A program made the translations under genes and the position numbers. The notes under the pieces are model-generated. The model searched no databases, was not told the DNA's origin, and was given only the letters and a program-made list of their open reading frames with translations. Below, piece after piece: positions 1-33,612 of a DNA stretch of 64,000 bases (position 1 is its first letter; every line of letters begins with the position of its first letter). The stretch is from Escherichia phage OLB35. The DNA lies in the sequence record MH992122.1, one strand, 5' to 3'.

Positions 1-2214
1 TTATTTGGCTGCTTCCACAGCCTTCATGAATTTAACGATTTGAGCGACTTGTTCTTTAGAAAGAGTACCACGTCGTCCCATGTAGTCTGACACAATATGA
101 TAATTGGTTTCGAATTCAATAACCATTTTATCATCATTATCGTAAGCATTATCTTTAAGCTTATCGAAAATTTTAGCACACAATTCTAACTTTTTATTCA
201 GTTCTCTGTTAGTAGCACCTGAGAATCGATTCCATCCCCAACGATTATTTACTGTTGAGAGTTTTGCAAAATCTTTACTGATTTCTTTGTTTTTAGAGCT
301 AAAATACTTACTAAGGAAGTTAAGCTCTTCATTACGAGTAATATGATTCAAATAAGGCTGTGCTCTACGACTTGGTGATACATACTCATCATAATCCACT
401 TTATCGATTAGCGTAATATAGTCATTAATTGATTTTTCGAACAAACATTCTACTTCACCAAGTTTACGAACTTTCTTAGCAATCTGTGGACGAACTACAG
501 TGAACTCTTTAATACCTGACAAATCAGCAATACGGGTCAAGAAATTGGAGTCATAGTTCAACCAACCTTTATCTGCGTCAAGACATTCAGCATTAGAACG
601 ATTACGAACTATAGCATAACCTTGGATTTCATCTGCTTCACTTGCCGGAATAAAGAGGTCTTCTGATACCCAAACATCGTTTTCATTCTTAAAGAATCGA
701 TGAGCACTTGGCGATTTAGGACGAGGCTCATTAGTCCGTTTCCTGACTTCAATCCATGGCTTAACGATTTGTAAAAGCTCTGAAGTCTTGTACATGTTAA
801 TGTTGTCGCCATCAAAGATAACTTTAAGGCGTTCCAGAAGTTTCATTGCATCTTCGTCTGTAGGGTCAACGAATAGTACACTTTTACCAAAACCGCGTGG
901 AACTTTACCAGTTAATTTAACCTCGTCTTTAGACATTTCAATTGAATTAAGAGCTCGCATTAATGGAACGCGTCCCTTAACATCGTCAATAACAATTTCA
1001 ACATTTTTAATATTAATGCCAATCAGACTGTTAATTGAAATAGTTGCCGATGAGCTACCACTTTCACGAATACGACGAAGACGAGGGGATTCAACTATAT
1101 CGTATACGACGCCGAGATTACACCACTCAGGCCCCATTTTAAAACGTTTGTACAACTCAGAATAAGTTAGTTGTTCTTTAGAGTATTTCAGTGATTCAAT
1201 ATTAGACCCAGCCTTTTCCATGTATTTACGAGCGGTATAGCCAAGAGAATCAATTTCACGGAACACATGACGTGGGTATTTACAATCAATCCATTTCTTA
1301 GAATCTTCAGCGAACAATTTAGCATCGATTTCTGCAACACGTTTATGGATATTTGCTACCGTACGTTTATCAAATGACAATGCTTCACGAGACGGGGCTA
1401 CATCTAGTTCACCCATAGGGAATTTAATATAAGCTGTAGTGCATCGCGTCATCATCCATGTTTGTTCTTTAATAACACTTCCGATTGGATATACAATACC
1501 GCCGTAAACAGCCATGATATTACCACGTTCACCCCATGGAGCTTCCTTGGCCAAATATACATCGTCAAATTCAGGGAAGTATTTAATATCTTTAACACCA
1601 CGAACTTCTGCAATATCGCCGAGAGGACGCATAACATAAGCAATTTCGGATGCAAACTTTTCAAAATCTTCCGGGTTAACCGGTACAACTACTTCTACAC
1701 CCGTACGGTCATCAGGACCCATCTTATCTACAAAGGTCGGCTTAATCTGTGGACCTGTGTCATCTTGGTAGATTACGTAACCACGAACTTCACCATTATG
1801 ATAAGACGTAAGGTTAAACGTATCAGTATATGCTAATGGAGCTTTAGAGCCGAGTCCGAATCCACCAATGAAATCGTTACTCGATGTTTTAGTTGAAGCA
1901 AAATATGAGTTATAAATTCCTGGCTCTTCGTCATTACCACGAATAGTGAAATCGCTCATACCAGGACCAAAGTCTCGAACTACAAAACGTGGGTCTAAAC
2001 GACCTGGAGCCTGAACAATAAACTTATCAGTGCAACCATTAAGAATTTGCCCATCGATACAGTTTGTAATTAATTCACGTACACAAGCCAATTCTTTGTT
2101 TGTATAAAGGTCATTAGACAAAATCTTATAAACTTTGCTATTGCCTTGAATAGTGAATGCTGTGCTCTTACCGCCTGAACCAATAATCGTTTCTTTAGCC
2201 GTTTCAATAATCAT
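1..2214 (-). CDS. rIIA: rIIA membrane-associated protein
   Basis: 737-aa ORF; N-terminus MIIETAKETIIGSGGKS... closely matches T4 rIIA; ATG at 2212-2214, stop at 1-3. Confidence 0.93.
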   Translation of the reverse strand: MIIETAKETIIGSGGKSTAFTIQGNSKVYKILSNDLYTNKELACVRELITNCIDGQILNGCTDKFIVQAPGRLDPRFVVRDFGPGMSDFTIRGNDEEPGIYNSYFASTKTSSNDFIGGFGLGSKAPLAYTDTFNLTSYHNGEVRGYVIYQDDTGPQIKPTFVDKMGPDDRTGVEVVVPVNPEDFEKFASEIAYVMRPLGDIAEVRGVKDIKYFPEFDDVYLAKEAPWGERGNIMAVYGGIVYPIGSVIKEQTWMMTRCTTAYIKFPMGELDVAPSREALSFDKRTVANIHKRVAEIDAKLFAEDSKKWIDCKYPRHVFREIDSLGYTARKYMEKAGSNIESLKYSKEQLTYSELYKRFKMGPEWCNLGVVYDIVESPRLRRIRESGSSSATISINSLIGINIKNVEIVIDDVKGRVPLMRALNSIEMSKDEVKLTGKVPRGFGKSVLFVDPTDEDAMKLLERLKVIFDGDNINMYKTSELLQIVKPWIEVRKRTNEPRPKSPSAHRFFKNENDVWVSEDLFIPASEADEIQGYAIVRNRSNAECLDADKGWLNYDSNFLTRIADLSGIKEFTVVRPQIAKKVRKLGEVECLFEKSINDYITLIDKVDYDEYVSPSRRAQPYLNHITRNEELNFLSKYFSSKNKEISKDFAKLSTVNNRWGWNRFSGATNRELNKKLELCAKIFDKLKDNAYDNDDKMVIEFETNYHIVSDYMGRRGTLSKEQVAQIVKFMKAVEAAK

Positions 2215-2226
2215 ATTTTTCTCTCA

Positions 2227-2427
2227 TCACAAGTTACGTTTAAAAATTTCTGCTACTTCAAGAAGTTCTTCTTTAGTAGCTGTATCGGTTTGTATTTTAT
2301 ATCGAATTTCTTTAAAGCGTTCTTTAAAGGACTCTGCTGACTCGATATCAAAAAATCTTTGGATAAGCCGGAATTCCCGGAGCACTGCTTTATCAAAAAG
2401 TTCCAAGTCCACGTTATATGTTCTCAT
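2227..2427 (-). CDS. small protein in rIIA.1 position
   Basis: 66-aa ORF with ATG, immediately upstream of rIIA, T4 synteny. Confidence 0.5.
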   Translation of the reverse strand: MRTYNVDLELFDKAVLREFRLIQRFFDIESAESFKERFKEIRYKIQTDTATKEELLEVAEIFKRNL

Positions 2428-2519
2428 AATATTCTCTTCAGTAGATTCCTAGGGCACTATTACTAAAGACCATATAATCTATCATCTTATGTGTAATAGT
2501 GCCTCAGGCTATTCAGGAT

Positions 2520-3620
2520 TTACGCTGTGAAGATTTTATCCCACATCGCAACAACTGCATCTCGGTTATACTTCTTCCATACTGCTTCAGCACGTTTAAC
2601 TCGAGCTTCGTATGTGTCAGTGAATTCTAATACAGCTTTTGTGTAAAGCGCAACTACTTCTTTCTTAGGAGTAGAGGAATCAATTTCTACACGCACAGTA
2701 TCTGGGTCGTATTCGAATGTCGCATGAGGATAATCCTTAAAAACTAACTGAATTACAGGGACACCTTTAGAGATGGCTTCAATAGAACTATTCTCTACCG
2801 TACCCGTGTCAGGACACGTATTGATAAGTGCTTTAGCTGTTTTAAGACGTTCCATGATTTCACTGTGTGGAGCATCAATAATAACAGGATACTTAGCCGG
2901 TGGTGCCCATTTACTAGGACAATAACCAATACCATTTTCGCCTAGTGCTTTAATCGCTTCAAGAGCAACATCAGTACGACGCATTTTAGTGTCATAACGT
3001 TGTGCACTAATAATCAGATCAGTCGCCGGAAGAATTTCAGGTTTCTCATTCAAACAAATAACCGGATAATCTTCAGCTTCAAACAACGGATTTGCTCGCC
3101 AATAATCATAATCAATTTTGTCAGTCAGACCTGAAGTCATATAACAATATTTGCGTTCAAATTCACGGAAGGCTTTAGTAGGAGCATAACTCTTACCACC
3201 GTTCTTATGAATTTGAATAGTCTGGTCCCAAATTTGAACAATGCCACGAGATACAGGTTCAAATGGTGTTGCCATAAAATTCTTATGAACTTTAGAAAGA
3301 CCTGCGTCTTTAATTGCCTGAACGGTTAGTTTGGTCGGTTCCATTGTAACAACGAAATCGTACTCATTAATGCCGGCTAGTTCAACAATCTTACGAGCCA
3401 TAGTATAACTCATACCTAGACTGAATTTAGTCAGATGACCAACAGGATGATGATTAACCTTCCAATCACCAAATGTGTCATTATCAAAGCCGATATAATC
3501 AATATCAGCACCGATGGACACAAGATATTTCAACACATTTAAATGTACTGCTTCAAGACCACCTTGTACACGTTCTGGGTTAAATGGGACTGCGCGAGAT
3601 GGGATAAACATAACTTTCAT
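2520..3620 (-). CDS. glycosyltransferase (GT-B/GT1-like), candidate DNA hmC glycosyl(arabinosyl)transferase
   Basis: 366-aa ORF; C-terminal ...TGTVENSSIEAISKGVPVI... resembles GT1 nucleotide-sugar binding motif; lies between rIIA.1 and 39 where T4 has gene 60/mobA. Confidence 0.55.
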   Translation of the reverse strand: MKVMFIPSRAVPFNPERVQGGLEAVHLNVLKYLVSIGADIDYIGFDNDTFGDWKVNHHPVGHLTKFSLGMSYTMARKIVELAGINEYDFVVTMEPTKLTVQAIKDAGLSKVHKNFMATPFEPVSRGIVQIWDQTIQIHKNGGKSYAPTKAFREFERKYCYMTSGLTDKIDYDYWRANPLFEAEDYPVICLNEKPEILPATDLIISAQRYDTKMRRTDVALEAIKALGENGIGYCPSKWAPPAKYPVIIDAPHSEIMERLKTAKALINTCPDTGTVENSSIEAISKGVPVIQLVFKDYPHATFEYDPDTVRVEIDSSTPKKEVVALYTKAVLEFTDTYEARVKRAEAVWKKYNRDAVVAMWDKIFTA

Positions 3621-3629
3621 AATTAAGCC

Positions 3630-3664
3630 TTATTAAAATTAAAATGAAGCTCCCGAAGGAGCTT
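3630..3664 (-). terminator. intrinsic terminator after gene 39
   Basis: hairpin aagctcc-cgaa-ggagctt (3647-3664), followed on minus-strand RNA by cauuuuaauuuu. Confidence 0.5.
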
Positions 3665-3678
3665 AGGACATCTATCAA

Positions 3679-5499
3679 TTAACCAAGCATCCAATCTTTA
3701 CGGAGTTCAGGGTCGTTACCCATGAGCATTTCAAAGAGTTCTTTCCAATTTTCAGGAAGTTTAACTACGTCGTACACAGGGTTCTGAATCATTTCTTTAT
3801 ATTCATCCCGCTGAAGTGAGCCCAATCCCTTTATGTATCGAATACTATGCTTAGGCAGTGTATCTTTAACTTCTTCATACTCAGCTACAGTATAAAACCA
3901 TTTTTGAGTTTTACCAATTTGTGCAATAATTACAGGCGTTTTAACAAAGCGAATACGTCCTTGTTCAAACAATTCAGGCCAATTACTAAAGAAAGCAAGC
4001 AAAGCCGGATAGATACTTCCAAGGCCGTCATGATCGGCATCGGTCATAATTGCAATATTACGATAGTTCGTATTCTCTGCTTTTTCACCAAGAATAAGAC
4101 CCGTGATAGCACAGATATCAAAGAGCTCTTTGTTCTTCATCATATCAGCATATGACATACCCCAGCTATTCATCACCTTACCACGTAATGGGAATCCACC
4201 GTGTAGTTCACGGTCACGAACATCAATGAGATATCCAATTGCCGAATCACCTTCTGTTAAGAACAATGTCGTATCTGCATCTTTACCACATTGGTTAGCT
4301 TTAATATGCTTATGAACCTTAGCTTTAGTTGCCTTTTTAGCTGCTTTAGTTTCTGCAGCCTTTTCTGCTGCCAATTTACGAGCTAATGCTGCTTCAACAA
4401 TAGGCATAATCAAGGCTTCGTTTTTAAGAAGTGCCTGAGCAATTTTCTTAGCATCTAATTGGATATGATTACGAATATCACCATATGTTGACGTTAAACG
4501 TTCTTTAGTCTGAGAATCAAAACGCATGTTGCTCATGTCTCTAATAAACATCAACATTGTGAGACATTCTTTAACACGAGCTTTAGTGACTTCAATACCC
4601 TTATATTTCTTTTTAATACCCGGCAAAAGATGTTCGCAGATATCGTCCATTACACATTCAACATGATGTCCACCGTTTTTAGTATGGATGTTATTCACAT
4701 AAGTTAAATGACGGAAGCCATCTGGTGATGTTGTGAATGCTATAGAGACTTTATCATTTTCTTGAATGATGTTATCTTCACCAAATTGTTTAGCAAATCG
4801 TTTAAAATTGCCATCAACCTTTTTACCATTAAATGTGAACTTGATATCAGGATAAACGACTGCCAATGTTTGAAGTCGGTCTAAAGTAATATCTAAATAA
4901 ATTTGAGATAAATTATGCTCTTCAAATGAAGTGAAATCAGGAGTGAAGATTACTTTAGTGCCTTTACCTTTAGATTTCTTAGAAGACCATGATTTGTTTT
5001 CCATTCCGTTTGAACAGTTAACAGTGATTTCATTTTCGCCATCTGACGTGATGCCTGTAAACAACGTAGAGAAGATATTAGTTAAACTACTCCCGACGCC
5101 GTTCATACCACCAGTCTTGCGTTCAGAGTCATCGCCAAAGTTACCACCGGCCTTTGGAATAGTCCAGGCTGCTACAGGCCCAGGAATTTGTTCACCTGTT
5201 TGGTCGGTAACTAAACCTTGAGGAATACCACGTCCGTTATCTTCCACCGAAACTTGATTATTTTTAATTTGCACATCAATTTTATTTGCAAACTTAAACG
5301 ATGTACGAATAGCTTCATCAACCGAGTTGTCAATAATCTCATCGATTAATTTAACCAGACCAGGAACATATTCAACTTGTTGATATTTACCAAACAAAAA
5401 ACGCTCGTGGGCTTCTTTAGCAGAAGAACCAATATACATACCACTACGTTTCTTAATATGTTCTACATCTGACAATACCTTAATTTCATTTTTAATCAT
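3679..5499 (-). CDS. 39: DNA topoisomerase II large subunit, gp39 fused with gp60 region
   Basis: 606-aa ORF; MIKNEIKVLSDVEHIKKRSGMYIGSS... near-identical to T4 gp39; single continuous ORF of fused 39+60 length. Confidence 0.95.
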   Translation of the reverse strand: MIKNEIKVLSDVEHIKKRSGMYIGSSAKEAHERFLFGKYQQVEYVPGLVKLIDEIIDNSVDEAIRTSFKFANKIDVQIKNNQVSVEDNGRGIPQGLVTDQTGEQIPGPVAAWTIPKAGGNFGDDSERKTGGMNGVGSSLTNIFSTLFTGITSDGENEITVNCSNGMENKSWSSKKSKGKGTKVIFTPDFTSFEEHNLSQIYLDITLDRLQTLAVVYPDIKFTFNGKKVDGNFKRFAKQFGEDNIIQENDKVSIAFTTSPDGFRHLTYVNNIHTKNGGHHVECVMDDICEHLLPGIKKKYKGIEVTKARVKECLTMLMFIRDMSNMRFDSQTKERLTSTYGDIRNHIQLDAKKIAQALLKNEALIMPIVEAALARKLAAEKAAETKAAKKATKAKVHKHIKANQCGKDADTTLFLTEGDSAIGYLIDVRDRELHGGFPLRGKVMNSWGMSYADMMKNKELFDICAITGLILGEKAENTNYRNIAIMTDADHDGLGSIYPALLAFFSNWPELFEQGRIRFVKTPVIIAQIGKTQKWFYTVAEYEEVKDTLPKHSIRYIKGLGSLQRDEYKEMIQNPVYDVVKLPENWKELFEMLMGNDPELRKDWMLG

Positions 5500-24198: not shown

Positions 24199-24747
24199 TT
24201 AACGAGCCCATTTGATGATTTCTGTAATCAAACCATTACGTTCGCTTGCATTAAATCCTATAACTTTGTTAGCACCATCATGATTAAGTAATTGATATGT
24301 TTGGATTTTGTTATGAATTGCAAACTCTTCAAAATGTGAAATGACTGTATTAAAACCGAATGAAGACAAAGTAATAAGGTCGTCTTCAAAACTTTCAGTC
24401 ATTTCGTTACGTGTTAAAATAATTGTGAACACATCATGGTTTTGGCAAAGACGAACATAGTCCTGTTCATAAACGTCAAGAATCGAGTCCGCATCTTGTC
24501 GAATACGTCCATAAACCCAGTTACTAATATATCCACGGTCTAACAGATAAATCTTAGTAGGGTCTAAATAATTCAACATCGTTTCGAAACAACCAACTTC
24601 ATTTCGAGACTTAACATCGAAACGTCCATCAACTGTTCGTTTAGGGAAATCAATCTTTACATATCTTTCACTAATTTCCATTATGTCATTAATGAAAGTT
24701 GTTTTACCGGCATTATCCGGGCCATCTACTAAAATAATTTTAGCCAT
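24199..24747 (-). CDS. P-loop nucleotide kinase-like protein (thymidylate/dNMP kinase fold)
   Basis: 182 aa; Walker A GPDNAGKTT and LDRGY motif; abuts the next gene. Confidence 0.55.
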   Translation of the reverse strand: MAKIILVDGPDNAGKTTFINDIMEISERYVKIDFPKRTVDGRFDVKSRNEVGCFETMLNYLDPTKIYLLDRGYISNWVYGRIRQDADSILDVYEQDYVRLCQNHDVFTIILTRNEMTESFEDDLITLSSFGFNTVISHFEEFAIHNKIQTYQLLNHDGANKVIGFNASERNGLITEIIKWAR

Positions 24748-24748
24748 T

Positions 24749-25648
24749 TTATTCCTCGATTACGACATCTTCGTATTTAGGTATATTATACGGCGAAGAA
24801 ATTAAAGCGTTAAAGTAGATGAACTCACCAAGACCTGGATGGAATACTTCTTCAGGATTTTCGAAATATTGAATCTTCGGACGTCCTTTAAGAATTTGAT
24901 AGTACTCAGTTTTAGTTGGTTTAAAAATTCGAATCAGCGCTTCTTCAGGATACTTATTTCTGTCAAAGCTATTATTTGGATCAGTTATATAAAGCGGTTG
25001 ACCTAATTGAATTGCACATTCAACCACTTGTTCAAAATGATAACACGGATCACTAATTCGAAATGGATGAAAAATACCATCTACATGAATAGGAGCCAAA
25101 TCACCTACAAGACGCTGCATGATGGAAGGACGTATAACTTTCTGCGTTACGATAATCTTATTACCATCTGCACCGGCGTTAACCAGCACTTCTTTTTGAC
25201 GTTCATTCAACACAGTAGTTTGAAGTGAACGATTAACTGACAACATATCGGTTTTTAAGAATTCGTCAATATAAAAACGTGGTTTATTAGGGTCTGCCGT
25301 GATATTGAAATTGAATTCTACATCAAAAGCGCCGTCATATCCAGTGATATCTGTTATTAGAAAATCACAATCATAATAAGCAATTAATGAATCAACCACA
25401 AATTCATTTTCAGACCAGAAATATTTACGAGTGTTATACGCGTTATCTTTATACCATAATGGAACAAACTTAAATTCCGGGAAAAGACGTTCACATTCTT
25501 TAATATCAGATGCATTACGTGGATATGTAATCACATCACCTGGATTAGCACGGTGCAAATGAAGTTGGAAGTTGCCGTCCTTAAGGATAGCATACTGTCC
25601 AGTTTCATAAGACCGCATACTCAAGATTGGTACGCGGAAAATAGCCAT
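24749..25648 (-). CDS. hypothetical protein at the T4 beta-gt position (candidate DNA-modifying transferase)
   Basis: 299-aa ORF between uvsX and gene 42; overlaps gene 42 stop; no recognisable T4 Bgt similarity. Confidence 0.5.
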   Translation of the reverse strand: MAIFRVPILSMRSYETGQYAILKDGNFQLHLHRANPGDVITYPRNASDIKECERLFPEFKFVPLWYKDNAYNTRKYFWSENEFVVDSLIAYYDCDFLITDITGYDGAFDVEFNFNITADPNKPRFYIDEFLKTDMLSVNRSLQTTVLNERQKEVLVNAGADGNKIIVTQKVIRPSIMQRLVGDLAPIHVDGIFHPFRISDPCYHFEQVVECAIQLGQPLYITDPNNSFDRNKYPEEALIRIFKPTKTEYYQILKGRPKIQYFENPEEVFHPGLGEFIYFNALISSPYNIPKYEDVVIEE

Positions 25649-26364
25649 TAGTCAAGGAATCCTTTAACATAATCAAAATCACGTTCAAACACATGGGCAC
25701 TTACCATGGTATGAGTATAATCACCAACTTCTACACCGCATTCGTTAGCGATATAATGAAGTAATTTTCCTTGGAGATAAAAATCCAACTGCATAACAAC
25801 AGCACAGTTCTGAGAACGCATATGACAGTGGGTATAAAGCTTACCATCACGAATATAATAAGTTACTGAGTCAGTACATGGATATTCAAGTGTTTCGTCC
25901 GAATCAAGCAAAGCCTGATCAGAACTTTCTAGAATTTGGAACACAACTCTTCGAGAGTTAGGTTTTTCTTTAAGTTCTTTTAGAAGAGTTGGTAATTGGG
26001 CCGCAATGCGAGGACCATAGAAAGTGTTGAAGTTCGCCGGCAAAACATCTGATTTTGGTTTAGAAATAAATTTAGCGACATTAGGATATGCCTTAAACGC
26101 TTCTTCTGCGTTGGTACCACCAGAAATCATAAACTTCCAGAAGTCTTCGGCATATTCATAAGAGATGCGGTTAATACGTGGGTCGGTCATTTTGAATGAT
26201 GATGGAGTGTCAACAACTACTGTCATAGACCCAATTTCATTACAACGTCCAATACGAGAATCAGTTACGAATTCGGGGTTTTCTAAAATTTCACGATTGA
26301 CTGCTTTAAATGCGGTTTGAAAATCTGCGGCTTTGATATATTTCATTGTGTTATGTTTTCCCAT
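25648..26364 (-). CDS. 42: dCMP hydroxymethylase (gp42-like, divergent)
   Basis: 238 aa; ...PCTDSVTYYIRDGKLYTHCHMRSQN... aligns with T4 gp42 CTNTVQYLIRDKKINAVVNMRSND active-site region. Confidence 0.8.
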   Translation of the reverse strand: MGKHNTMKYIKAADFQTAFKAVNREILENPEFVTDSRIGRCNEIGSMTVVVDTPSSFKMTDPRINRISYEYAEDFWKFMISGGTNAEEAFKAYPNVAKFISKPKSDVLPANFNTFYGPRIAAQLPTLLKELKEKPNSRRVVFQILESSDQALLDSDETLEYPCTDSVTYYIRDGKLYTHCHMRSQNCAVVMQLDFYLQGKLLHYIANECGVEVGDYTHTMVSAHVFERDFDYVKGFLD

Positions 26365-26406: not shown

Positions 26407-26646
26407 TTATTTGAATTTCTTGACAATGTTGATATAACGTAAAGCTTCAGAATCTATACTTCCAAGAACACTATGAAGGAATGCATCAGTGTAGTATTCC
26501 AATTGAACAGGTTCTTTAATCACTTTAGCCGCTTTGGTTTCAAACAGGCCCATAAGGGCCTTTTTAAGAATTTGTTCGTTAGTGTTCAGTTTCATAGTCA
26601 AAATCTCTTCGTTAAGTTTATAATTAAAACTTTTTCTAGAAATCAT
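26407..26646 (-). CDS. hypothetical protein
   Basis: 79-aa ORF; ATG overlaps upstream stop as ATGA (coupling). Confidence 0.45.
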   Translation of the reverse strand: MISRKSFNYKLNEEILTMKLNTNEQILKKALMGLFETKAAKVIKEPVQLEYYTDAFLHSVLGSIDSEALRYINIVKKFK

Positions 26647-26969
26647 TCCGGGTACCTCAAAGCGTCATCAGAGTTAGTTATATCAATAATAGATATGGAG
26701 TTTTCTGCTAACCCGTTTTTAGATAATTGACGTTTATAATACCTTTCACAATATGTACACGTTGACCCACAGATTTCATTAGCACAATCAAAATCTGGAT
26801 GTCTGAACCACCTTTTTTCTAAAAAGCCATCTAACAAAGAGGTTTCAATATTTACTGTATGTGAAAACTCAGTCTCATTTTCAAGAGTGAAAATAGTCTC
26901 TAAAGGCTTCCACAGTTCTAACAAATTACCTTCAAACTTTTCAGAAGCGTATGCTTCAAGAACTTTCAA
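26643..26969 (-). CDS. Cys-cluster segment (CANEICGSTCTYC), probable C-terminal extension of the upstream ORF
   Basis: 108 codons with no ATG at all (only a TTG start); in frame with 26994-27803 across a single TGA. Confidence 0.45.
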   Translation of the reverse strand: MKVLEAYASEKFEGNLLELWKPLETIFTLENETEFSHTVNIETSLLDGFLEKRWFRHPDFDCANEICGSTCTYCERYYKRQLSKNGLAENSISIIDITNSDDALRYPE

Positions 26970-26993
26970 AATGTAGTCTGTGCTACCTGTACG

Positions 26994-27803
26994 TCATGAA
27001 ACTTTGAATTGAGTGATACCAATATCATTATAAAGTTTCAAATCTTGAGGACGAACAAAACGAGTTCTCAGCCAGTTAAATGGGTCTGTATCACGAGCTT
27101 TAATACAGTGCTGCATTGGATATCCATTTAAGGATTTAGCATCATCAGCGGTAACATCAGTACTATGGAAAATATAGCAAGAGACACGATAGCTACAATG
27201 TGTTGTATACCCTTTACCAGCATTAGAACAGAACTCATTTACAAGAACTTCAAATATTATATTGTTCTTATTGCAAAACTCTGCTGCACGCTTCAGGAAA
27301 GAAACTGAACGGTTCTTATGAATTCCGCAACAGACTTTTTTGATGTTATATTGGTCATGCAAGTATTTGATTTGAGTTACAGCATCGACATGTAGAATTG
27401 TTGAAACTTCAATCTCAATATCTTTATTGACTTCACGAACAATTTCCATAACAACAGGGTTAGCGATAGTAATACGCCATACGCCTATTGACCAAAGATA
27501 CTGAACATAATCCTGAATAGCTTTCTTCTTCCACTCAACTAGTTCTCTTTTTGAACCAGGATTTATCGTGTTGAGTGTATAGTTAAAGCAAATACCTAAT
27601 TCGTTACAACGTTTAACGTAGTCTTCTAACATCTTTTTGTCAACGTCAGGAAGCCTAAAATCAGGTCTGGCTGCTACAAAAGCCATTTCTCTTGTAGAGC
27701 CATATACTTCGTTTATCAAGCTATTAGGATAGGTTTTATTGAGCTCTACGATTTTATCAAGAAGAGCTAAATCAAAATTCGTTCCGATTTTAAAAGTATT
27801 CAT
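26994..27803 (-). CDS. Cys-rich enzyme, possibly peptidase-U32-like TIM barrel (family uncertain)
   Basis: 269-aa ORF; ...EVLVNEFCSNAGKGYTTHCSYRVSC... weakly resembles the U32 signature; ends at in-frame TGA 26994-26996. Confidence 0.5.
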   Translation of the reverse strand: MNTFKIGTNFDLALLDKIVELNKTYPNSLINEVYGSTREMAFVAARPDFRLPDVDKKMLEDYVKRCNELGICFNYTLNTINPGSKRELVEWKKKAIQDYVQYLWSIGVWRITIANPVVMEIVREVNKDIEIEVSTILHVDAVTQIKYLHDQYNIKKVCCGIHKNRSVSFLKRAAEFCNKNNIIFEVLVNEFCSNAGKGYTTHCSYRVSCYIFHSTDVTADDAKSLNGYPMQHCIKARDTDPFNWLRTRFVRPQDLKLYNDIGITQFKVS

Positions 27804-27861: not shown

Positions 27862-28263
27862 TTATAGATTCGGTTTATACGATTTAAATGTTTCGAATTC
27901 GCCTTTATTCATAAGAGCTTTGAATTCGTCAGGACGCATAGCTTTGTCGTCGATAATCCAATCATATACTGGTTTATGTGTTAGCAAATTATGGTACTTC
28001 AAGCCAATGTTTGCCAAGTTCTGAATCAGACTTGGGAGAATGTCAATTGCTATACGACCAGGACCTACTGACTTCATACCGCGAGCAGTGTAAAGCGTTA
28101 TGGTATGCCCTGCATCATACAGGGCATTAATGGCGGTCACCATTTCGACGTCTGGTTTGAAGTTCACATAATCACGATTGTTATTCCACTCTGTTATACA
28201 ATCATCGACATCAAAACAAAGATTAAGCATGTTTTCTACACGGTGCATTAGATTCGTTCCCAT
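27862..28263 (-). CDS. HAD-superfamily phosphatase (sugar-phosphate phosphatase-like)
   Basis: motif I FDVDDCIT, motif II TLYTARG, Lys and WIIDDKA; alternative ATG at 28246-28248 overlaps upstream stop (TAATG). Confidence 0.65.
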   Translation of the reverse strand: MGTNLMHRVENMLNLCFDVDDCITEWNNNRDYVNFKPDVEMVTAINALYDAGHTITLYTARGMKSVGPGRIAIDILPSLIQNLANIGLKYHNLLTHKPVYDWIIDDKAMRPDEFKALMNKGEFETFKSYKPNL

Positions 28264-29933
28264 TGATGAGTGATATCGCCACCGATTGGACGATAGGAAA
28301 CACCAGTTTCTTTATCAGTTAGTACCCATTTACCAGGATTTTTTGTAATCAGAGTAGCCGTTACAGGTTCTGCTACGTCATAACTAATAGAGCCGTCTTG
28401 AAGTACACGGCCCATGTTACGTAATTGCTTAGTTAGAAGTTCCATACCTTTATAATATGCGGCTACCGCTTTAAGTGGATTATTCTTGAAATAACCACCT
28501 AATGCAATCCAGATAATTGCCACTGCCAAATGATGATACTCGTTAAACGAACTCATCTTTCCATATTTGTAAACTAATGGATTGATGTTAATAGTCACAT
28601 TACAAGTTGTTTCATCAATAGTAAACTGGCCCCAGGTCGGATTAGCGTTGAATTCATCATAACCTGAAACAGCATAAAGCACTTTAGCTTCATCATACAA
28701 TTTTGGCCCGTAAATCTTGGTTTCACCAAAATATCCACGAGGGTCGATAAACTTGACTTCGCCGTTATCAGTAATCATAGTATTACTGAAGTTTGGGTCA
28801 CCGTGAATAACAGAGTACTGTCCCTGAGAACGGTTATGATAACGAATAAGGTGTTCTAAAGCTTGTTTCAGCATTGGCTTCAGCCGTCCAATCTTAGTGT
28901 AGTTCACATGTGTGATTTTACCAAATGAATCAATCAATGGTTGAATGCTTTCACAACGATCAATAACTTTCGTATAGAATTCTTTAGTGAAATCACGACG
29001 AACAGTTTCAGGACTTACAAAATAAGTGTCTGTGCTGAATTTCAGTGCATCTAAAATTGCATCAACAATTTGTGGACGAGCAAGACTTGATTTGGATTTA
29101 ATATATTCAAATGCTGGCTTACCTTTAATGCGTTCCATTTCAAAGTTATTTTCATTAACAGAAACTAACTGAGGAACTGAATCTGATTTCACTTTAAGAT
29201 ACCACGAAATCTCATCTTTCTGAAGAGCTCGTCCCTGTTCGGTTAATGCGAATTTAGTTACAGTTTCTTCACCAATTTCAACTGCATTAAAACTACGATT
29301 AAGTTCACGAACTTCATGAGCTTTTTCGAGTTTAGGCATATCACCTAAATCAATTAGATTCATAAGCTCTGATTTATTGAATGCACTGCCGTAAAGGAAT
29401 TCTACGAAATCACGCCCTTTGCAGTATTCATGAATTTCCTCATCAGTAGAACCCATATAGAATTCCCAGTCTTTGAACTGATAAATTCCTACAACATTAC
29501 CGCCTGTTGAACCTACGTTAGTGATATTTTCACCATCGAAATTATATCGACATTCATCACCCTTAACATAGATTGCGTTAACATTCCAAGACCATGAACC
29601 AAAATCAGGAATAATATCACACCAGTTAACAATTACGTTATGGCCATCTAAATCTTTGTATAATTTAGCAAGAGCATAAGCAGAACCATACGCTTCATCA
29701 ACTGTACGAATAGTCACATTGAACCCTTCTTGCTCACAATAAGCTCGAACAGTTTCAACAAATTTTGAATGAACTACTACAATAATTTCATCTGCACCAA
29801 GGTCAGAATAAATTGTATACAAATTGCTCAGAATAGTGTCTTGTTTATAGTTAACAAGCACCTTAGGAATATGGTGCGTTATTGGATACAAACGAGTTGC
29901 CAGTCCAGCACCAAGAATAACAGCTTTTTTCAT
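28248..29933 (-). CDS. bifunctional sugar-1-phosphate nucleotidyltransferase / anomeric sugar kinase (APH-like)
   Basis: 561 aa; N-terminal MKKAVILGAGLATRLYPITHHIPKVLV (NTP-transferase G-x-G-x-R-L); C-terminal ...IHGDPNFSNTMITDNGEVKFIDPRGYFG (kinase catalytic loop). Confidence 0.8.
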   Translation of the reverse strand: MKKAVILGAGLATRLYPITHHIPKVLVNYKQDTILSNLYTIYSDLGADEIIVVVHSKFVETVRAYCEQEGFNVTIRTVDEAYGSAYALAKLYKDLDGHNVIVNWCDIIPDFGSWSWNVNAIYVKGDECRYNFDGENITNVGSTGGNVVGIYQFKDWEFYMGSTDEEIHEYCKGRDFVEFLYGSAFNKSELMNLIDLGDMPKLEKAHEVRELNRSFNAVEIGEETVTKFALTEQGRALQKDEISWYLKVKSDSVPQLVSVNENNFEMERIKGKPAFEYIKSKSSLARPQIVDAILDALKFSTDTYFVSPETVRRDFTKEFYTKVIDRCESIQPLIDSFGKITHVNYTKIGRLKPMLKQALEHLIRYHNRSQGQYSVIHGDPNFSNTMITDNGEVKFIDPRGYFGETKIYGPKLYDEAKVLYAVSGYDEFNANPTWGQFTIDETTCNVTININPLVYKYGKMSSFNEYHHLAVAIIWIALGGYFKNNPLKAVAAYYKGMELLTKQLRNMGRVLQDGSISYDVAEPVTATLITKNPGKWVLTDKETGVSYRPIGGDITHQWERI

Positions 29934-30194
29934 GTTGTGGTCCTCATTGGTAAGTAGGTGTATTGTACACTATTCTAGTTAAAGCATTCATACTTTGCTT
30001 GTAGTCCAATCATAATCCATCCGATTATAAGAGTCGGAATCATTACTGGAGCCGTTAAGCTCCAGTAGATAGTCATGACAAGCATCAATAGTAAAAGTCC
30101 TATTGTTATTGCTTTCATTGCTCGCCTCGTAACATGGCACCTAGTGCACCACCAGGGTGGAACTTAAGGAAGATCATTAGAGGTAAATCCACGT

Positions 30195-30753
30195 TCAGAT
30201 GAAAGGTTGATAGCGAACGTATCGATAAGCGCTAACAACAATGTAGTGGACATGGTCGGAGCTAAAGAGATTCTCGTCGACCTCTACCGCGATGCCTGTA
30301 CAGAAAGAGTAATCAAAAAGGGCTTCATTTTCTTGCGGAATGTCCGGGTTACAATGCAACAGAATCTGTTTAACCTGAGGACGAATCATACGAAGATGTT
30401 TAGCAACACCTATCATTTCTTCGGTCTTACCAGAACGACTAATATGAATCAACACATCATTAGGCGCAATGAATCCTGCATCACCATGAGAATAATGCCC
30501 GGTGTTCAAATACATGCTAGGAATACCCAATGAAGCAAAATGTCTCGGAAGCTTTAGTTGCGATATTAGCGTTCTTACCGACACCTGTAATAATTACACG
30601 ACTTTCATAATTGCTCAGTCCTGGGCGACGAAGAGTTTCAAGAATAGCATTATATCGGGCAGGGTTTTTACTAATTACTTTAGCCATAGTAGCCAAAGAA
30701 GAAGCTTGTTTTACGATTGCGTCAATAGCGATAGTGATTGGTGTAGTTTTCAT
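30195..30753 (-). CDS. SIS-domain sugar-phosphate isomerase (GmhA/KdsD-like), frame broken at a homopolymer
   Basis: ORFs 30517-30753 (...ITGVGKNANIATKASETF) and 30195-30584 (...ASLGIPS...HGDAGFIAPNDVLIHISRSGKTEE) join into one SIS domain if one T is removed from the run at 30537-30540. Confidence 0.65.
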
Positions 30754-30793
30754 ATTTCTCTCATTTAATTAGTTTACCGTCCATGGCATTATA

Positions 30794-33531
30794 TCAAAAA
30801 TCAAACATATCGAACAGAGATGCTTTCTTCTCGTAATCGAGTTTAGCTGCTGTTGTGAATCCTTCAAGTGGTTTAATAAATGTCTTCTCAAGGAGAACAG
30901 TATAGTCCATCCAATGAAGTACATCATCTTTGATTAAATCGGTGATTTCCGTACCAGAAGGCCATGCGATACATTTATCACCGAACGGGTTTCCATCACG
31001 TAAAGGCAGAACATATACTTTTTCACCTTCTACAACTTGTGGAGCATCAATATTACCTTTGATAGCTCGGTTATATGTCAGAATTCCACGAATATGGAAC
31101 GGACATTTAGGACCAGGGAATCCACCAACGTCATATTTAGCAATGTTATTCGCAGAAGATACCGCCGCGATGCTAATATAATTCAATTGACGGAATTCTT
31201 TTTCAAACTCTTTAAAATATTCTTGTAATGATTCTTCACCTTCTTGAAGCATACGACGAATACATTCTTTAAGAGCTTTCTGTACTGCTTTAGGGGTCGA
31301 AGATTTCTGAGTCTCTAGACCCATGATTTTGAGTTTAGGCTCAGCGTATCTGGTTCCTTCCATATCCCACACGTTTAATGCATAACGTTTCTTACCAGTC
31401 CAGAATCCACCAATACCTTTAGAACCGAGCGGAGGACCAGCGATAGCTTCTCGGTCCATGAACATTAAGTGTTGTTTATTGTTCATGTATTCGCACATTT
31501 CACGGAAACCTCTATCAATAGCCGGTTCCATACGTTCACGTGCAAACTTATCTAAGAAGTCTACCCAATGGTTGGTATCACGGAATTTAGATTCACCGAC
31601 CTTATCAATAATTTTATCAGCAGATACGTAAATAGAGTCTGTATCACCGTAAAGAACGAAAGCTTCACCTTCTGTACCACAAACTTCGTTCAGATATTCA
31701 TTAACTTTACGTTCAATCCACTGTAAAGCCATTTGCCCAAATGTTGTGATTGCAGTAGCATTACGCAAATCATAATAACGGAACCAAACGTTGCCAAGTG
31801 CACCATAAAGCGAGTTGATGAGCAATTTACGGTTAATTTGTGCAGTCATACCTGCAACTTCAGTACGTTGAGCTCTAAACAACATTTCATTAAGAGATTT
31901 AGCAGACAACTTTTTAATCTTTTCTTTAATCTCATCGCTGAAGTCGAAACGATAATCAACATCTAATGGTTCGTCAACAGAAAGATTAGGATTATGTAAG
32001 GCTTCTTTAATTATTTCACCATTACGTTGAGCTGCAAGCATGTAACCTTTATGTTCTTTACGTTGATTAAAGACCTTAGTGATTTCAGTTGGAACTACAC
32101 CATCACGGTCTTTATAATACATCATGCCGTTAGGAGAGCAACTGTACACATCTGAAGGACGTTCAGCGATTGCGTTAATATAATCATGCAATGGAGCTAC
32201 TTTAAACGTTCCTGCTATTGTTTCTGGGCTAATATTCACTTGGCGAATAATACTTGGATACAGAGATGTAAGGTCGAAACTCATTACATATTTGTATCGA
32301 TTTGGAATAGGTTCCTTAACAAAAGCGCCAGGATAAGGTTGAACCTGGTGAGAACGACCTTGTGGAATCACCTTGTTCTGCTCTTTAAGGCTATTAAAAA
32401 TAATAACATCCCATGTTTTAATTGGGCTAAACACAGATTGAATCTGTATCTTAGCATAATAACCCATGTCCAAACTCAAGTTTATGAACTGGCGTTTAGC
32501 ATCAATTTGCAATACACGATACACGTCGATAATGTTATAAGAAATATATCGTTGGTGATTACTTTCACGAAGTTTAGAAATAGGACCGTCATATTTCAGT
32601 TTACCGACATTCAATTCAAATTCTGAAATGTAATCCAGAGAATACGACGGTTGGTTTGTGAAAGAGAATTTTTTGTAAAGGTCGATATAATCAAGAACAG
32701 AGATACCGAACAATGTAATGATTTCACGAGAACCGTACATGTTTTCAATAACTTTAACACGAGTCTTGCGATACTGCAAAAACCTAGATCATTGTCGGGT
32801 GGTGATAAACGTTTCGCAGTAGATTCGCCAAAAATATTCTTGATTCGGTTATACACATATGGAATATCAAATGACTCAACGTTCCATCCAGTCAAAATGA
32901 CAGGAGTTTTCTGTTGCCAGAAGTTGAGATATTCCATCAACAATTCTTTTTCGTTATCAAACGGCATATAAATGATTTTATCAATAATTTCGGATGGAAC
33001 TTCATCACCACCTTGTTCTTGAAGCTTAGCAGCGATTTCAATAGACCATTCTTCTACATTACCATATGGAGAATTCAATAGATCAAATACGTAGAACCTG
33101 TCGTCAATTGAGTCATAATGGGTGATAGCATCAATCGGATGTTTTGCTTGTGACGGCTCAGGGAACCCATCCGGAGATGTTACTTCGATGTCGAAGTTAG
33201 CCACACGAATTTTTGTATGGTCGTATTTGATTTCATAGTTATAAGTGTCAGACAAATACGCCAATTTGAAATCGTCCATACCTAATGCTTCAAGACCAAT
33301 ATCTTCCATGCGTTTAATCCATTGGGAGGCATCACGCATATTAGCGAACAACTTACGAGTACACGGCTTACCGTAGATATCGAAATATTTAGTAGCCTGA
33401 CTTTCTGGACAATGAGCAAACAATGATGGTTTATATTCTACTTCACGAGTACGTTCACGGCCATTAGAATCGATGTAACGTTCAAAAATTGAATCACCAA
33501 TCTGTTCAACCGTTAAGTAAAATTCTTTCAT
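30794..33531 (-). CDS. 43: DNA polymerase gp43 (family B), two overlapping frames
   Basis: ORF 32611-33531 (MKEFYLTVEQIGDSIFERYIDSNGRERTREVEY..., RB69-type N-terminus) and ORF 30794-32779 (...NMYGSREIITLFGISVLDY...YGDTDS...); frame break near 32771-32799. Confidence 0.9.
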
Positions 33532-33612
33532 TTAATTTCCTTTAGACGAGTTATTGTCTTTTGTTTGTTGATGAACTTATTATACTCCAAATGGGACCGA
33601 AGTCCCATTGCT

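Follow-up and report, generated by a model that had tools for sequence, protein, structure and literature searches.

We analysed a window of 64,000 nucleotides of Escherichia phage OLB35 (MH992122.1) and found that the gene at 2520..3620 (minus strand) encodes a 366-aa glycosyltransferase of the GT-B, GT4-like type. This protein is probably the second-step enzyme of DNA arabinosylation, which would transfer arabinofuranose (Araf) from UDP-Araf in a beta-1,3 linkage onto DNA containing alpha-arabinosyl-5-hydroxycytosine. Judged by its sequence, it is the published enzyme ORF003c/gp3 of phage RB69 and is already known.

The ORF at 2520..3620 was confirmed as a single ORF with an ATG start, and it is a real gene. 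An AAGG Shine-Dalgarno-like element (3628..3631, minus strand) was read from the sequence 7 nt upstream of the ATG. The gene sits between rIIA.1 (2227..2427; Pfam T4_RIIA1, E 2e-30), which lies downstream together with rIIA (1..2214), and the upstream gene 39, which encodes an unsplit topoisomerase II large subunit of 606 aa (3679..5499; HATPase_c, DNA_gyraseB, Toprim and TOPRIM_C). The T4 genes 60, 60.1 and mobA occupy the equivalent interval, and a preliminary description of this DNA had correctly placed the gene in the T4 gene 60/mobA slot. It had also placed the gene far from the sugar-nucleotide module; the distance to that module, at about 24.2-30.8 kb, is roughly 21 kb. Full-length homologues were found in 209 phage records, and the placement between rIIA.1 and gene 39 is kept in more than 150 of them (Mosigvirus). 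The GC and GC3 contents of the gene are like those of its neighbours, and comparison with RB69 gave 25 synonymous and 5 non-synonymous codon differences.

The 92-nt spacer from the glycosyltransferase stop to rIIA.1 contains a strong, conserved hairpin (2448..2508, minus strand) with an 11-bp perfect stem (GGCACUAUUAC/GUAAUAGUGCC). Its fold was calculated at -28.6 kcal/mol (z -4.6), 0 of 200 shuffles were as good, and no U-tract follows it. The hairpin is nearly identical in RB69, LH01 and JK45, whereas T4 lacks it. Just past the gene 39 stop and ahead of the glycosyltransferase ribosome-binding site, the terminator scan picked up a UUCG-tetraloop hairpin with a U-rich tail (AAGCUCC-UUCG-GGAGCUU; 3647..3664, minus strand), a putative terminator-like or stabilising element. 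The scan around the gene found 1 such element versus 1.0 expected by chance, and the fold z-score of this hairpin was only -1.2. Sigma-70 promoters around the gene were likewise not above chance (5 found vs. 6.4 expected).

The 366-aa protein is identical to RB69 ORF003c/gp3 (RB69p003, NP_861693) at 361 of 366 positions, and the five substitutions are all conservative. RB69 ORF003c occupies the same coordinates in NC_004928 (2520..3620), with the same length and neighbours. In a phmmer search against the PDB, the protein matched 9iqz/9ir0 (E 1e-248, about 98% identity), which are described as the glycosyltransferase of phage HY126, alone (apo) and with UDP. Both entries come from He et al. (Nat Chem Biol, 2026). 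The match to phrog_8302 (E 2e-222) covers residues 1-366 of 366. We see no functional distinction between the 366-aa protein, RB69 gp3, the HY126 glycosyltransferase and PHROG 8302. ORF003c was chosen by Thomas et al. 2018 as the best glycosyltransferase candidate and proposed to be an arabinosyltransferase (PMC6024577). More recently, RB69 gp3 was labelled 'beta-arabinosyltransferase 2' in Table 1 of PMC13326640, where the step was hypothesised. In GenBank, the protein is mostly labelled 'hypothetical', or wrongly 'DNA alpha-glucosyltransferase' or 'ATP-binding protein'.

The family is tiny. It is confined to Mosigvirus, with one place per record, and the Acinetobacter T4-like phages, with two places per record, both inside the arabinosylation cluster. 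A homologous-protein search with the 366-aa protein returned only 5 clusters, and an exhaustive search with the profile, which covered 1.84 billion representatives, gave only 12 hits.

The GT-B assignment, which agrees with the preliminary description, was made because a protein about 98% identical has been solved as a glycosyltransferase with UDP. For the 366-aa protein itself, Pfam gave no family up to E 1, and NCBIfam gave no match either. The phmmer and family-profile searches of the PDB, at E up to 10, found no chain beyond 9iqz/9ir0. The AF2 model was moderate (pLDDT 61), with a poor, low-confidence N-terminal domain, because few homologues were available and the alignment was shallow; we therefore relied on the solved structure. 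For the AF2 model, Foldseek placed 9iqz (TM 0.69) and 9ir0 first, followed by GT-B enzymes of family GT4 (PimA, WaaG, BshA and PglA; E about 1e-8).

The C-terminal signature had been described as GT1-like. The motif NTCPDTGTVENSSIEAISKGVPVIQL (residues 267-292) is real, but by the CAZy classification the protein is GT4-like, not GT1-like. The motif aligns with the EX7E region of P0135, a remote relative that matches Pfam Glyco_transf_4 (31.9 bits vs. a cut-off of 28.5) and also Glycos_transf_1. P0135 aligned with the 366-aa family over the full length at an hhalign probability of 98.3%, and it is only through this remote member that the 366-aa protein is indirectly linked to the GT4 Pfam families. 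The family does not have the EX7E motif as such. Its second Glu is kept as the invariant E281, whereas the first is replaced by the invariant G273, with an invariant E276 three residues on. The G286-P288-V289 stretch, Q207-R208 and Glu94 of the N-terminal domain are also invariant.

In the window genome, the 366-aa gene co-occurs with a 5-hydroxy-dCMP synthase and a module for UDP-arabinose synthesis, all on the minus strand. The synthase is a thymidylate-synthase homologue of 238 aa (25648..26364; Pfam Thymidylat_synt) that is identical to its orthologue RB69 gp48 at 235 of 238 positions (99%) and matches PDB 9iqc/9ir2/9iqu (E 3e-160). The activity of RB69 gp48 has been confirmed experimentally (PMC13326640). 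In a BLAST comparison with an E. coli ThyA sequence, the register of the 'D169N' signature was ambiguous by two residues; the identification of the synthase therefore rests on the 99% identity to RB69 gp48. Given this enzyme, the modified base is 5-hydroxycytosine, and the hydroxymethylcytosine acceptor named in the preliminary description has to be abandoned. The remaining genes of the module include a nucleotide kinase of 182 aa (24199..24747; RB69 gp45 orthologue), assigned by position, the RB69 annotation and a weak dTMP-kinase P-loop match. A HAD-type phosphatase of 133 aa (27862..28263) is the analogue of RB69 gp51 and HY126 AfhF; it matches the NCBIfam capsule biosynthesis phosphatase (E 5e-13), and its role was taken from PMC13326640. 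The bifunctional sugar kinase/UDP-sugar pyrophosphorylase (28248..29933, 561 aa), the analogue of RB69 gp52:53 and HY126 AfhE, has Pfam NTP_transferase in its N-terminal part and kinase-like matches in its C-terminal part, with NCBIfam support. Its gene is intact in the window. At the position corresponding to window 29280, the RB69 reference contains a 1-bp error. The arabinose-5-phosphate isomerase gene (29975..30753; RB69 gp55 orthologue, SIS domain remnant) is broken: single-base insertions at 30173, 30269 and 30537 have cut it into three small ORFs.

The DNA chemistry of RB69 has been established in published work (PMC13326640). Mosigvirus DNA contains mono- and di-arabinosyl cytosines (PMC13326640, PMC13390438), with the sugar attached directly through the C5 oxygen of 5-hydroxycytosine (PMC13326640). 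The multi-step glycosylation anticipated in the preliminary description is thereby borne out, as is its suggestion of a second transferase at the T4 beta-gt position. There, between the ThyA homologue and uvsX, lies the gene for a compact 299-aa protein (24749..25648, minus strand; RB69 gp46:47 orthologue, phrog_3891), which is GT-B in the predicted structure (pLDDT 95.6). This protein had no Pfam or NCBIfam match, and its PHROGs family, like that of the 366-aa protein, is annotated only as 'unknown function'. A paralogous relationship between the 299-aa and 366-aa GT-B proteins was rejected at the sequence level. The 299-aa family occurs in 348 phage records, whose hosts include Klebsiella, Serratia, Enterobacter, Yersinia, Proteus and Shewanella. 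Every arabinosylating T4-like phage that we examined has it, including reported single-sugar phages, and it is present in Serratia phage LC53 and Shewanella phage Thanatos. The 299-aa protein is probably the first arabinosyltransferase, which would place alpha-Araf onto 5-hydroxycytosine.

The number of 366-aa-family genes (0, 1 or 2) tracks the number of arabinoses reported (1, 2 or 3). LC53 and Thanatos have no such gene, and their DNA is mono-arabinosylated and mono-pentosylated, respectively (bioRxiv 10.64898/2025.12.19.695335; PMC13326640). RB69, NP and Bas46/47 have one gene and carry one and two sugars (PMC13326640, PMC13390438, PMC12923530), and DLP3 has two genes and three sugars (PMC13326640). 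No Serratia or Shewanella record appeared among the 209 phage records with a full-length homologue, and in many phages the 299-aa gene accompanies the sugar module and the 5-hydroxy-dCMP synthase, but no member of the 366-aa family is present. Thanatos TH1_065 was considered as a hidden member and rejected (hhalign probability 0.2%). TH1_065 has a motif common to the U32-like protein RB69 gp50. In vitro, DLP3 gp76 and gp77 together put a third arabinose on RB69 DNA with UDP-Araf; neither added it alone, and no single DLP3 transferase was active on bare 5-hydroxycytosine DNA (PMC13326640). The equivalents in DLP1, which gene order suggests are ADLP1_074 and ADLP1_075, are 40-43% identical to the 366-aa protein.

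Given this phyletic pattern and the in vitro data on the Acinetobacter homologues, we place the 299-aa enzyme first and the 366-aa enzyme second. Replicated phage DNA would have 5-hydroxycytosine in place of cytosine, and the 299-aa GT-B protein, encoded beside the 5-hydroxy-dCMP synthase, would put alpha-D-arabinofuranose on the C5 oxygen. The 366-aa protein, acting as a soluble GT-B enzyme with the UDP-sugar bound in its C-terminal Rossmann domain, would then take a second D-arabinofuranose from UDP-arabinofuranose made by the phage and attach it to O3 of the first. This would give beta-D-Araf-(1->3)-alpha-D-Araf-O5-deoxycytidine, which is the main modified base in the DNA of Mosigvirus. With its additional sugar, the glycan would form a longer shield against nucleases of the host and other defences still able to attack singly arabinosylated DNA. 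We infer that the 366-aa enzyme forms the second linkage and not the first, acts on DNA and uses UDP-Araf as donor. The preliminary description had taken it as the best candidate for the transferase that puts the phage-made sugar on DNA. Its membership in the pathway stands, whereas the phyletic and DLP3 data argue that it probably does not add the first sugar to the base, and the order of the two enzymes given there is probably reversed.

An alternative assignment, proposed by Thomas et al. 2018 and in the preliminary description, would make the 366-aa protein the primary transferase, adding the first arabinose to the modified cytosine, with the 299-aa protein serving, for example, in sugar activation. 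No other glycosyltransferase of the pathway has a structure on deposit, and this one was solved with UDP; it was also the candidate favoured by Thomas et al. 2018 (PMC6024577). Moreover, Thanatos TH1_063, a member of the 299-aa family, was reported to be a UDP-xylose pyrophosphorylase in vitro, and no transfer to DNA was seen (PMC12838424). This report counts against our main explanation, as it bears on the identity of the first transferase. However, a dedicated pyrophosphorylase domain is already present in the 561-aa protein, and the DLP3 homologues were inactive on bare 5-hydroxycytosine DNA (PMC13326640). LC53, Thanatos and many other phages have the 299-aa gene and the module without the 366-aa family. 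Since single-sugar phages lack it, the 366-aa family is not the general first transferase, and we regard this alternative as unlikely. The need for both gp76 and gp77 to add the third sugar (PMC13326640) also raises the idea that the 366-aa protein, as a cooperating partner or a scaffold, works only when complexed with the other GT-B protein. Mosigvirus, however, has a single family member, whose gene and the 299-aa gene are 21 kb apart. Crystals with UDP were obtained, and the invariant nucleotide-binding residues (E276, E281, G286-P288-V289 and Q207-R208) argue for a catalytically competent enzyme. Dependence on a complex thus appears very unlikely, although the DLP3 pair indicates that a picture of one enzyme for one sugar may be too simple. 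A target other than DNA, such as a glycolipid of the host envelope or a protein of the phage, would fit the best non-self structural matches, which are lipid and LPS glycosyltransferases (PimA, WaaG and PglA neighbours). Against it, the Acinetobacter members lie inside a DNA arabinosylation cluster, homologues modify DNA in vitro (PMC13326640), the family distribution tracks DNA glycan length, and the 366-aa protein has no membrane-association features and is encoded among early replication genes. We give this idea hardly any credence.

The stereochemistry also counts against second-step arabinosylation by the 366-aa protein, because the GT4 enzymes, which are closest to it in structure, are retaining and the product linkage would be beta. 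If both GT-B enzymes used the same UDP-Araf donor to give an alpha first sugar and a beta second sugar, one of these GT4-like enzymes would have to invert. The 366-aa family would be the better inverting candidate, as it has lost the first EX7E Glu (invariant Gly273) and has the invariant Glu94 in its N-terminal domain. We offer, tentatively and with considerable doubt, that the family is a GT4-type scaffold turned inverting for a furanose donor, with Glu94 as a possible general base.

The 366-aa protein shares the GGxE loop in the N-terminal domain, the Q-R...R phosphate-binding stretch and the C-terminal E-A-I-S-K-G-V-P-V helix, which carries the second Glu of EX7E (E281), with GT4 enzymes (PimA, WaaG, BshA and MshA). 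Unlike them, it has no Pfam match of its own, carries G273 in place of the first EX7E Glu and is proposed to give a beta product. In outline, it resembles T4 Agt (GT72, PDB 1XV5/1Y6F) and Bgt (GT63), which are GT-B enzymes that use a UDP-sugar for post-replicative glycosylation of C5-substituted cytosine. It differs in the sugar (arabinofuranose, not glucose), in the base (5-hydroxycytosine, not hydroxymethylcytosine) and probably in the acceptor, a sugar rather than the base. Although the preliminary description had pointed to Agt and Bgt for comparison, neither is a sequence relative in phmmer and profile searches taken to E 10, and Thomas et al. 2018 saw the similarity only at the HHpred level (PMC6024577). 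The role of the 366-aa enzyme would be closer to that of the second-step (gentiobiosyl-forming) transferases of T2 and T6. DLP3 gp76/gp77 (ADLP1_074/075 in DLP1) belong to the same family over the full length and have the same invariant motifs. The two DLP1 paralogues are 58% identical to each other and lie in the arabinosylation cluster beside the kinase, whereas the Mosigvirus gene is single and displaced; the DLP3 pair makes a third, beta-1,5-linked sugar, whereas the Mosigvirus enzyme is credited with the beta-1,3-linked second sugar. The coliphage Bas46 is reported to have doubly arabinosylated hydroxycytosine (PMC12923530), as Mosigvirus DNA does. According to the passage of PMC13216743 that cites Mahler 2025, Bas46 without the arabinosyltransferase Aat is viable but sensitised to a defence system. 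This dispensability fits an accessory second-step enzyme; Aat may have such a role, as proposed for the 366-aa protein, and may correspond to the 366-aa gene.

Arabinosylated 5-hydroxycytosine is one of the DNA hypermodifications through which T4-like phages evade restriction enzymes and CRISPR, and the number of sugars alters which host defences still work. RB69-like coliphages are often used for phage therapy. The biology was worked out in papers of 2018-2026, a crystal structure exists, and the present finding adds no new biology; its practical value is an annotation fix for the GenBank records of the 366-aa protein. In RB69-like coliphages, the second sugar is likely to be determined by the 366-aa gene.

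The window DNA belongs to a Mosigvirus, an RB69-like coliphage. Over the stretch with the gene for the 366-aa protein (2520..3620, minus strand), its identity to Escherichia phage LF82-4 was 99.6%, and matches at 95-99% came from more than 150 phages of Escherichia and Shigella. The exact protein is deposited as AYR03914.1 (Escherichia phage OLB35, 'hypothetical protein'). At identical coordinates RB69 (NC_004928) carries RB69p003, 'RB69ORF003c hypothetical protein', with 361 of 366 residues identical. The ORF reads from an ATG, preceded on the same strand by an AAGG ribosome-binding element at a distance of 7 nt. Given that full-length homologues occur in 209 phage records, that the codon differences from RB69 are mostly synonymous (25 vs. 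5 non-synonymous), and that GC and GC3 equal those of the adjacent genes, the ORF is a real gene.

Downstream of the gene lie rIIA.1 (2227..2427, minus; Pfam T4_RIIA1, E 2e-30) and rIIA (1..2214, minus). On the upstream side, 3679..5499 encodes the large subunit of topoisomerase II (606 aa; HATPase_c, DNA_gyraseB, Toprim and TOPRIM_C), equivalent to T4 gp39 plus gp60 in unsplit form. In T4, by contrast, the same interval carries genes 60, 60.1 and mobA, which bears out the placement of the gene in the T4 gene 60/mobA slot. It is also, as described earlier, far from the sugar-nucleotide module (24.2-30.8 kb), approximately 21 kb away. In the spacer before rIIA.1, positions 2448-2508 (minus) fold into a strong hairpin (-28.6 kcal/mol, z -4.6) whose stem pairs perfectly over 11 bp. 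It is almost base-for-base the same in RB69, LH01 and JK45 and missing from T4; no U-tract follows it, and it is therefore not a canonical terminator. Shigella phage JK45 (MK962757; locus L006, 1501-3104), classified as Tequatrovirus yet Mosigvirus-like at this locus, has a full-length glycosyltransferase gene and, in tandem behind it, a partial duplicate encoding the C-terminal 136 aa. In Escherichia phage LH01 (PP434429; locus L007, 301-1400), the gene is annotated as two ORFs of about 274 and 58 aa. Both forms are possible cases of natural or artefactual disruption of a dispensable glycosyltransferase gene.

Pfam and NCBIfam scans of the 366-aa protein gave no match, and PHROGs assigned it to phrog_8302 (category unknown function). 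The sequence search of solved structures returned a single sequence, 9iqz/9ir0 (E 1e-248, about 98% identity), described in the fold-search table as 'phage HY126 glycosyltransferase' and the same 'with UDP' (release 2025-07-16). An AlphaFold model, built from an alignment of six sequences only, was of moderate confidence (pLDDT 61), good in the C-terminal domain and poor in the N-terminal domain. Its best fold match was 9iqz (E 7e-51, TM 0.69), followed at E of about 1e-8 by the GT4-type GT-B enzymes PimA, WaaG, BshA, PglA and tetrahydrobiopterin glucosyltransferase. The glycosyltransferase call of the preliminary description is thus supported by both the model and the UDP-bound HY126 structure. 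Searches of solved structures with the single sequence and the profile linked the protein to neither T4 Agt nor Bgt at the sequence level.

The family is extremely small (five 90%-identity clusters), and its profile found 12 matches among 1.84 billion representatives. One remote match, P0135, exceeds the Pfam Glyco_transf_4 cut-off, matches Glycos_transf_1 below threshold, and can be aligned with 344 columns of the family profile (98.3% probability); P0135 therefore provides a sequence bridge to GT4. Its EX7E motif (E-TFGISNF-E) aligns to G273-TVENSSI-E281. Compared with the classical EX7E, the family retains the second Glu (E281), whereas the first is replaced by an invariant Gly (G273); an invariant Glu276 lies three residues further on. 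G20-G21-L22, E94, T118-P119, R125, Q207-R208, D210, R214, N267-T268-C269 and H299-A300-T301 are also invariant. Given this alignment and conservation, the C-terminal nucleotide-sugar binding signature of the preliminary description is genuine, though beneath the reach of curated HMMs. GT-B enzymes usually contact the ribose and phosphate through the positions of E281 and the G286-P288-V289 helix.

The feature is already on record, through a proposal of 2018, a structure made public in 2025 and papers on the pathway from 2025-2026. Thomas et al. 2018 (PMC6024577) detected arabinose in RB69 DNA, nominated ORF003c (366 residues) as arabinosyltransferase using custom HMMs, HHpred and Phyre2, and nominated the gene 43-uvsX module as the UDP-arabinose pathway. 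Lee et al. 2026 (PMC13326640) showed that the RB69 base is not hydroxymethylcytosine (hmC); the DNA contains alpha-D-Araf-O5-dC and beta-D-Araf-(1->3)-alpha-D-Araf-O5-dC (Araf, arabinofuranose) on 5-hydroxycytosine (5hoC), whose source is the ThyA homologue gp48, as 5hodCMP. They describe the gp48 family as a flavin-dependent 5-hydroxy-dCMP synthase. The 238-aa ThyA homologue of the window (25648..26364, minus) is identical to gp48 at 235 of 238 residues and essentially identical to PDB 9iqc/9ir2. The acceptor is therefore 5hoC, and the hmC of the preliminary description is incorrect, while the multi-step glycosylation it envisaged holds, since RB69 DNA carries mono- and di-arabinosyl cytosine (PMC13326640). 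PDB 9iqc, 9ir2 and 9iqu, all near-identical to the 238-aa protein, are titled only 'Thymidylate synthase', and T4 dCMP hydroxymethylase was not among its best 60 sequence matches.

The module also comprises a kinase (24199..24747), the 299-aa ORF (24749..25648, minus), a U32-peptidase-like gene (26643-27803, minus), a HAD phosphatase (27862..28263), a 561-aa nucleotidyltransferase-kinase fusion (28248..29933) and a remnant of arabinose-5-phosphate isomerase (29975-30753, minus; RB69 gp55 orthologue). Ribulose-5-phosphate would be converted to UDP-D-arabinofuranose in three steps by the isomerase, the bifunctional kinase/pyrophosphorylase and the HAD phosphatase, a route based on the PMC13326640 summary of HY126 AfhE and AfhF. 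The sugar-activation enzymology of these two proteins, like the HY126 structures, apparently comes from He et al. 2026 (Nat Chem Biol).

Several irregularities were observed in the module and in neighbouring gene 43. DNA polymerase gene 43 (30794-33531) carries, relative to RB69, a unique 26-bp insertion at 32773-32798 (minus), CCGACAATGATCTAGGTTTTTGCAGT, whose length is not divisible by three and which introduces an in-frame stop, leaving gp43 as ORFs of 306 and 661 aa. The window has no second copy, and the insertion is absent from all of the roughly 110 Mosigvirus records that match its flanks; a sequencing or assembly error in this essential gene is the probable cause. Three single-base insertions relative to RB69 (30173, 30269 and 30537) divide the isomerase gene into three small ORFs, and other Mosigvirus records have the isomerase annotated at this position. 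All of these records are about 30 nt shorter than the window over 29900-33600. The broken isomerase gene reflects either sequence errors or a pseudogene with reliance on host KdsD/GutQ. In the U32-like gene, a single G-to-T change at 26994-26996 (minus) converts a GGA (Gly) codon of RB69 gp50 to TGA, truncating the protein from 389 to 269 aa; the frame is intact beyond it. At 25105 and at 29280, NC_004928 contains one base more than the window, and these indels divide RB69 gp46/47 and gp52/53 each into two ORFs. The 299-aa and 561-aa genes are intact in the window, which fits the published view of these splits as sequencing errors.

The 299-aa family was found in 348 phage records (hosts Escherichia, Klebsiella, Serratia, Enterobacter, Yersinia, Proteus, Providencia, Edwardsiella, Pectobacterium, Erwinia, Shewanella and Acinetobacter), and its gene directly adjoins the ThyA homologue in every locus inspected. 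The 366-aa family, in 211 records, was confined to Mosigvirus-type coliphages (one place each) and Acinetobacter phages (two places each). Acinetobacter phage DLP1 has both its copies, ADLP1_075 and ADLP1_074, within the arabinosylation cluster, where they directly follow the kinase. Their identity to the window protein is 43% and 40%, respectively, and to each other 58%, which suggests a duplication within the Acinetobacter-phage lineage. Serratia phage LC53 was in the searched collection with its ThyA-299-kinase block, and none of the 211 matching phage records was from Serratia. Shewanella phage Thanatos has a 299-aa-family member, TH1_063; its neighbour TH1_065 (378 aa) was considered for the 366-aa family and rejected as unrelated.

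As cited in PMC12923530, Mahler et al. 2025 found Bas46 and Bas47 DNA doubly arabinosylated; LC53 DNA reportedly carries a single arabinose. Numbers of 366-aa-family genes (zero in LC53 and Thanatos, one in Mosigvirus, two in DLP3) equal those of arabinoses beyond the first. In experiments, gp76 plus gp77 of Acinetobacter phage DLP3, each needing the other, added a third arabinose from UDP-Araf to RB69 DNA, and bare 5hoC DNA was not modified by any DLP3 transferase on its own (PMC13326640). Together, the gene count and the in-vitro result favour a sugar-onto-sugar role. Table 1 of that paper likewise names gp3 'beta-arabinosyltransferase 2' and gp46:47 'arabinosyltransferase 1', as hypotheses from structure models and synteny with mono-arabinosylating Thanatos. 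The main rival, that the 366-aa enzyme installs the first sugar, seems unlikely to us. It would sit with the pyrophosphorylase activity assigned to the 299-aa family in the Thanatos paper (PMC12838424), in which Thanatos-1 TH1_063 (locus L002, 4995-5897) formed UDP-xylose from UTP and xylose-1-phosphate in vitro. Another group instead treats the family as the first DNA arabinosyltransferase.

We therefore consider the second step the probable, though not secure, place of the 366-aa enzyme. The ThyA homologue would make 5hodCMP, which would enter DNA as the triphosphate, and the 299-aa GT-B enzyme would add alpha-Araf onto O5. The 366-aa enzyme, with UDP-Araf bound in its C-terminal domain, would then extend the first sugar by an Araf at O3. 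As the linkages run alpha, then beta, one of the two GT4-like enzymes would have to be inverting. Of the two-enzyme scheme in the preliminary description, the DNA-modification role stands, whereas the order of the enzymes was probably reversed, given the gene count and the DLP3 data. The broader statement, that the 366-aa protein is an arabinosyltransferase of this DNA-modification pathway, can be made with high confidence. As relayed in PMC13216743, Mahler et al. 2025 found Bas46 lacking the arabinosyltransferase Aat to be sensitised to plasmid-borne defence.
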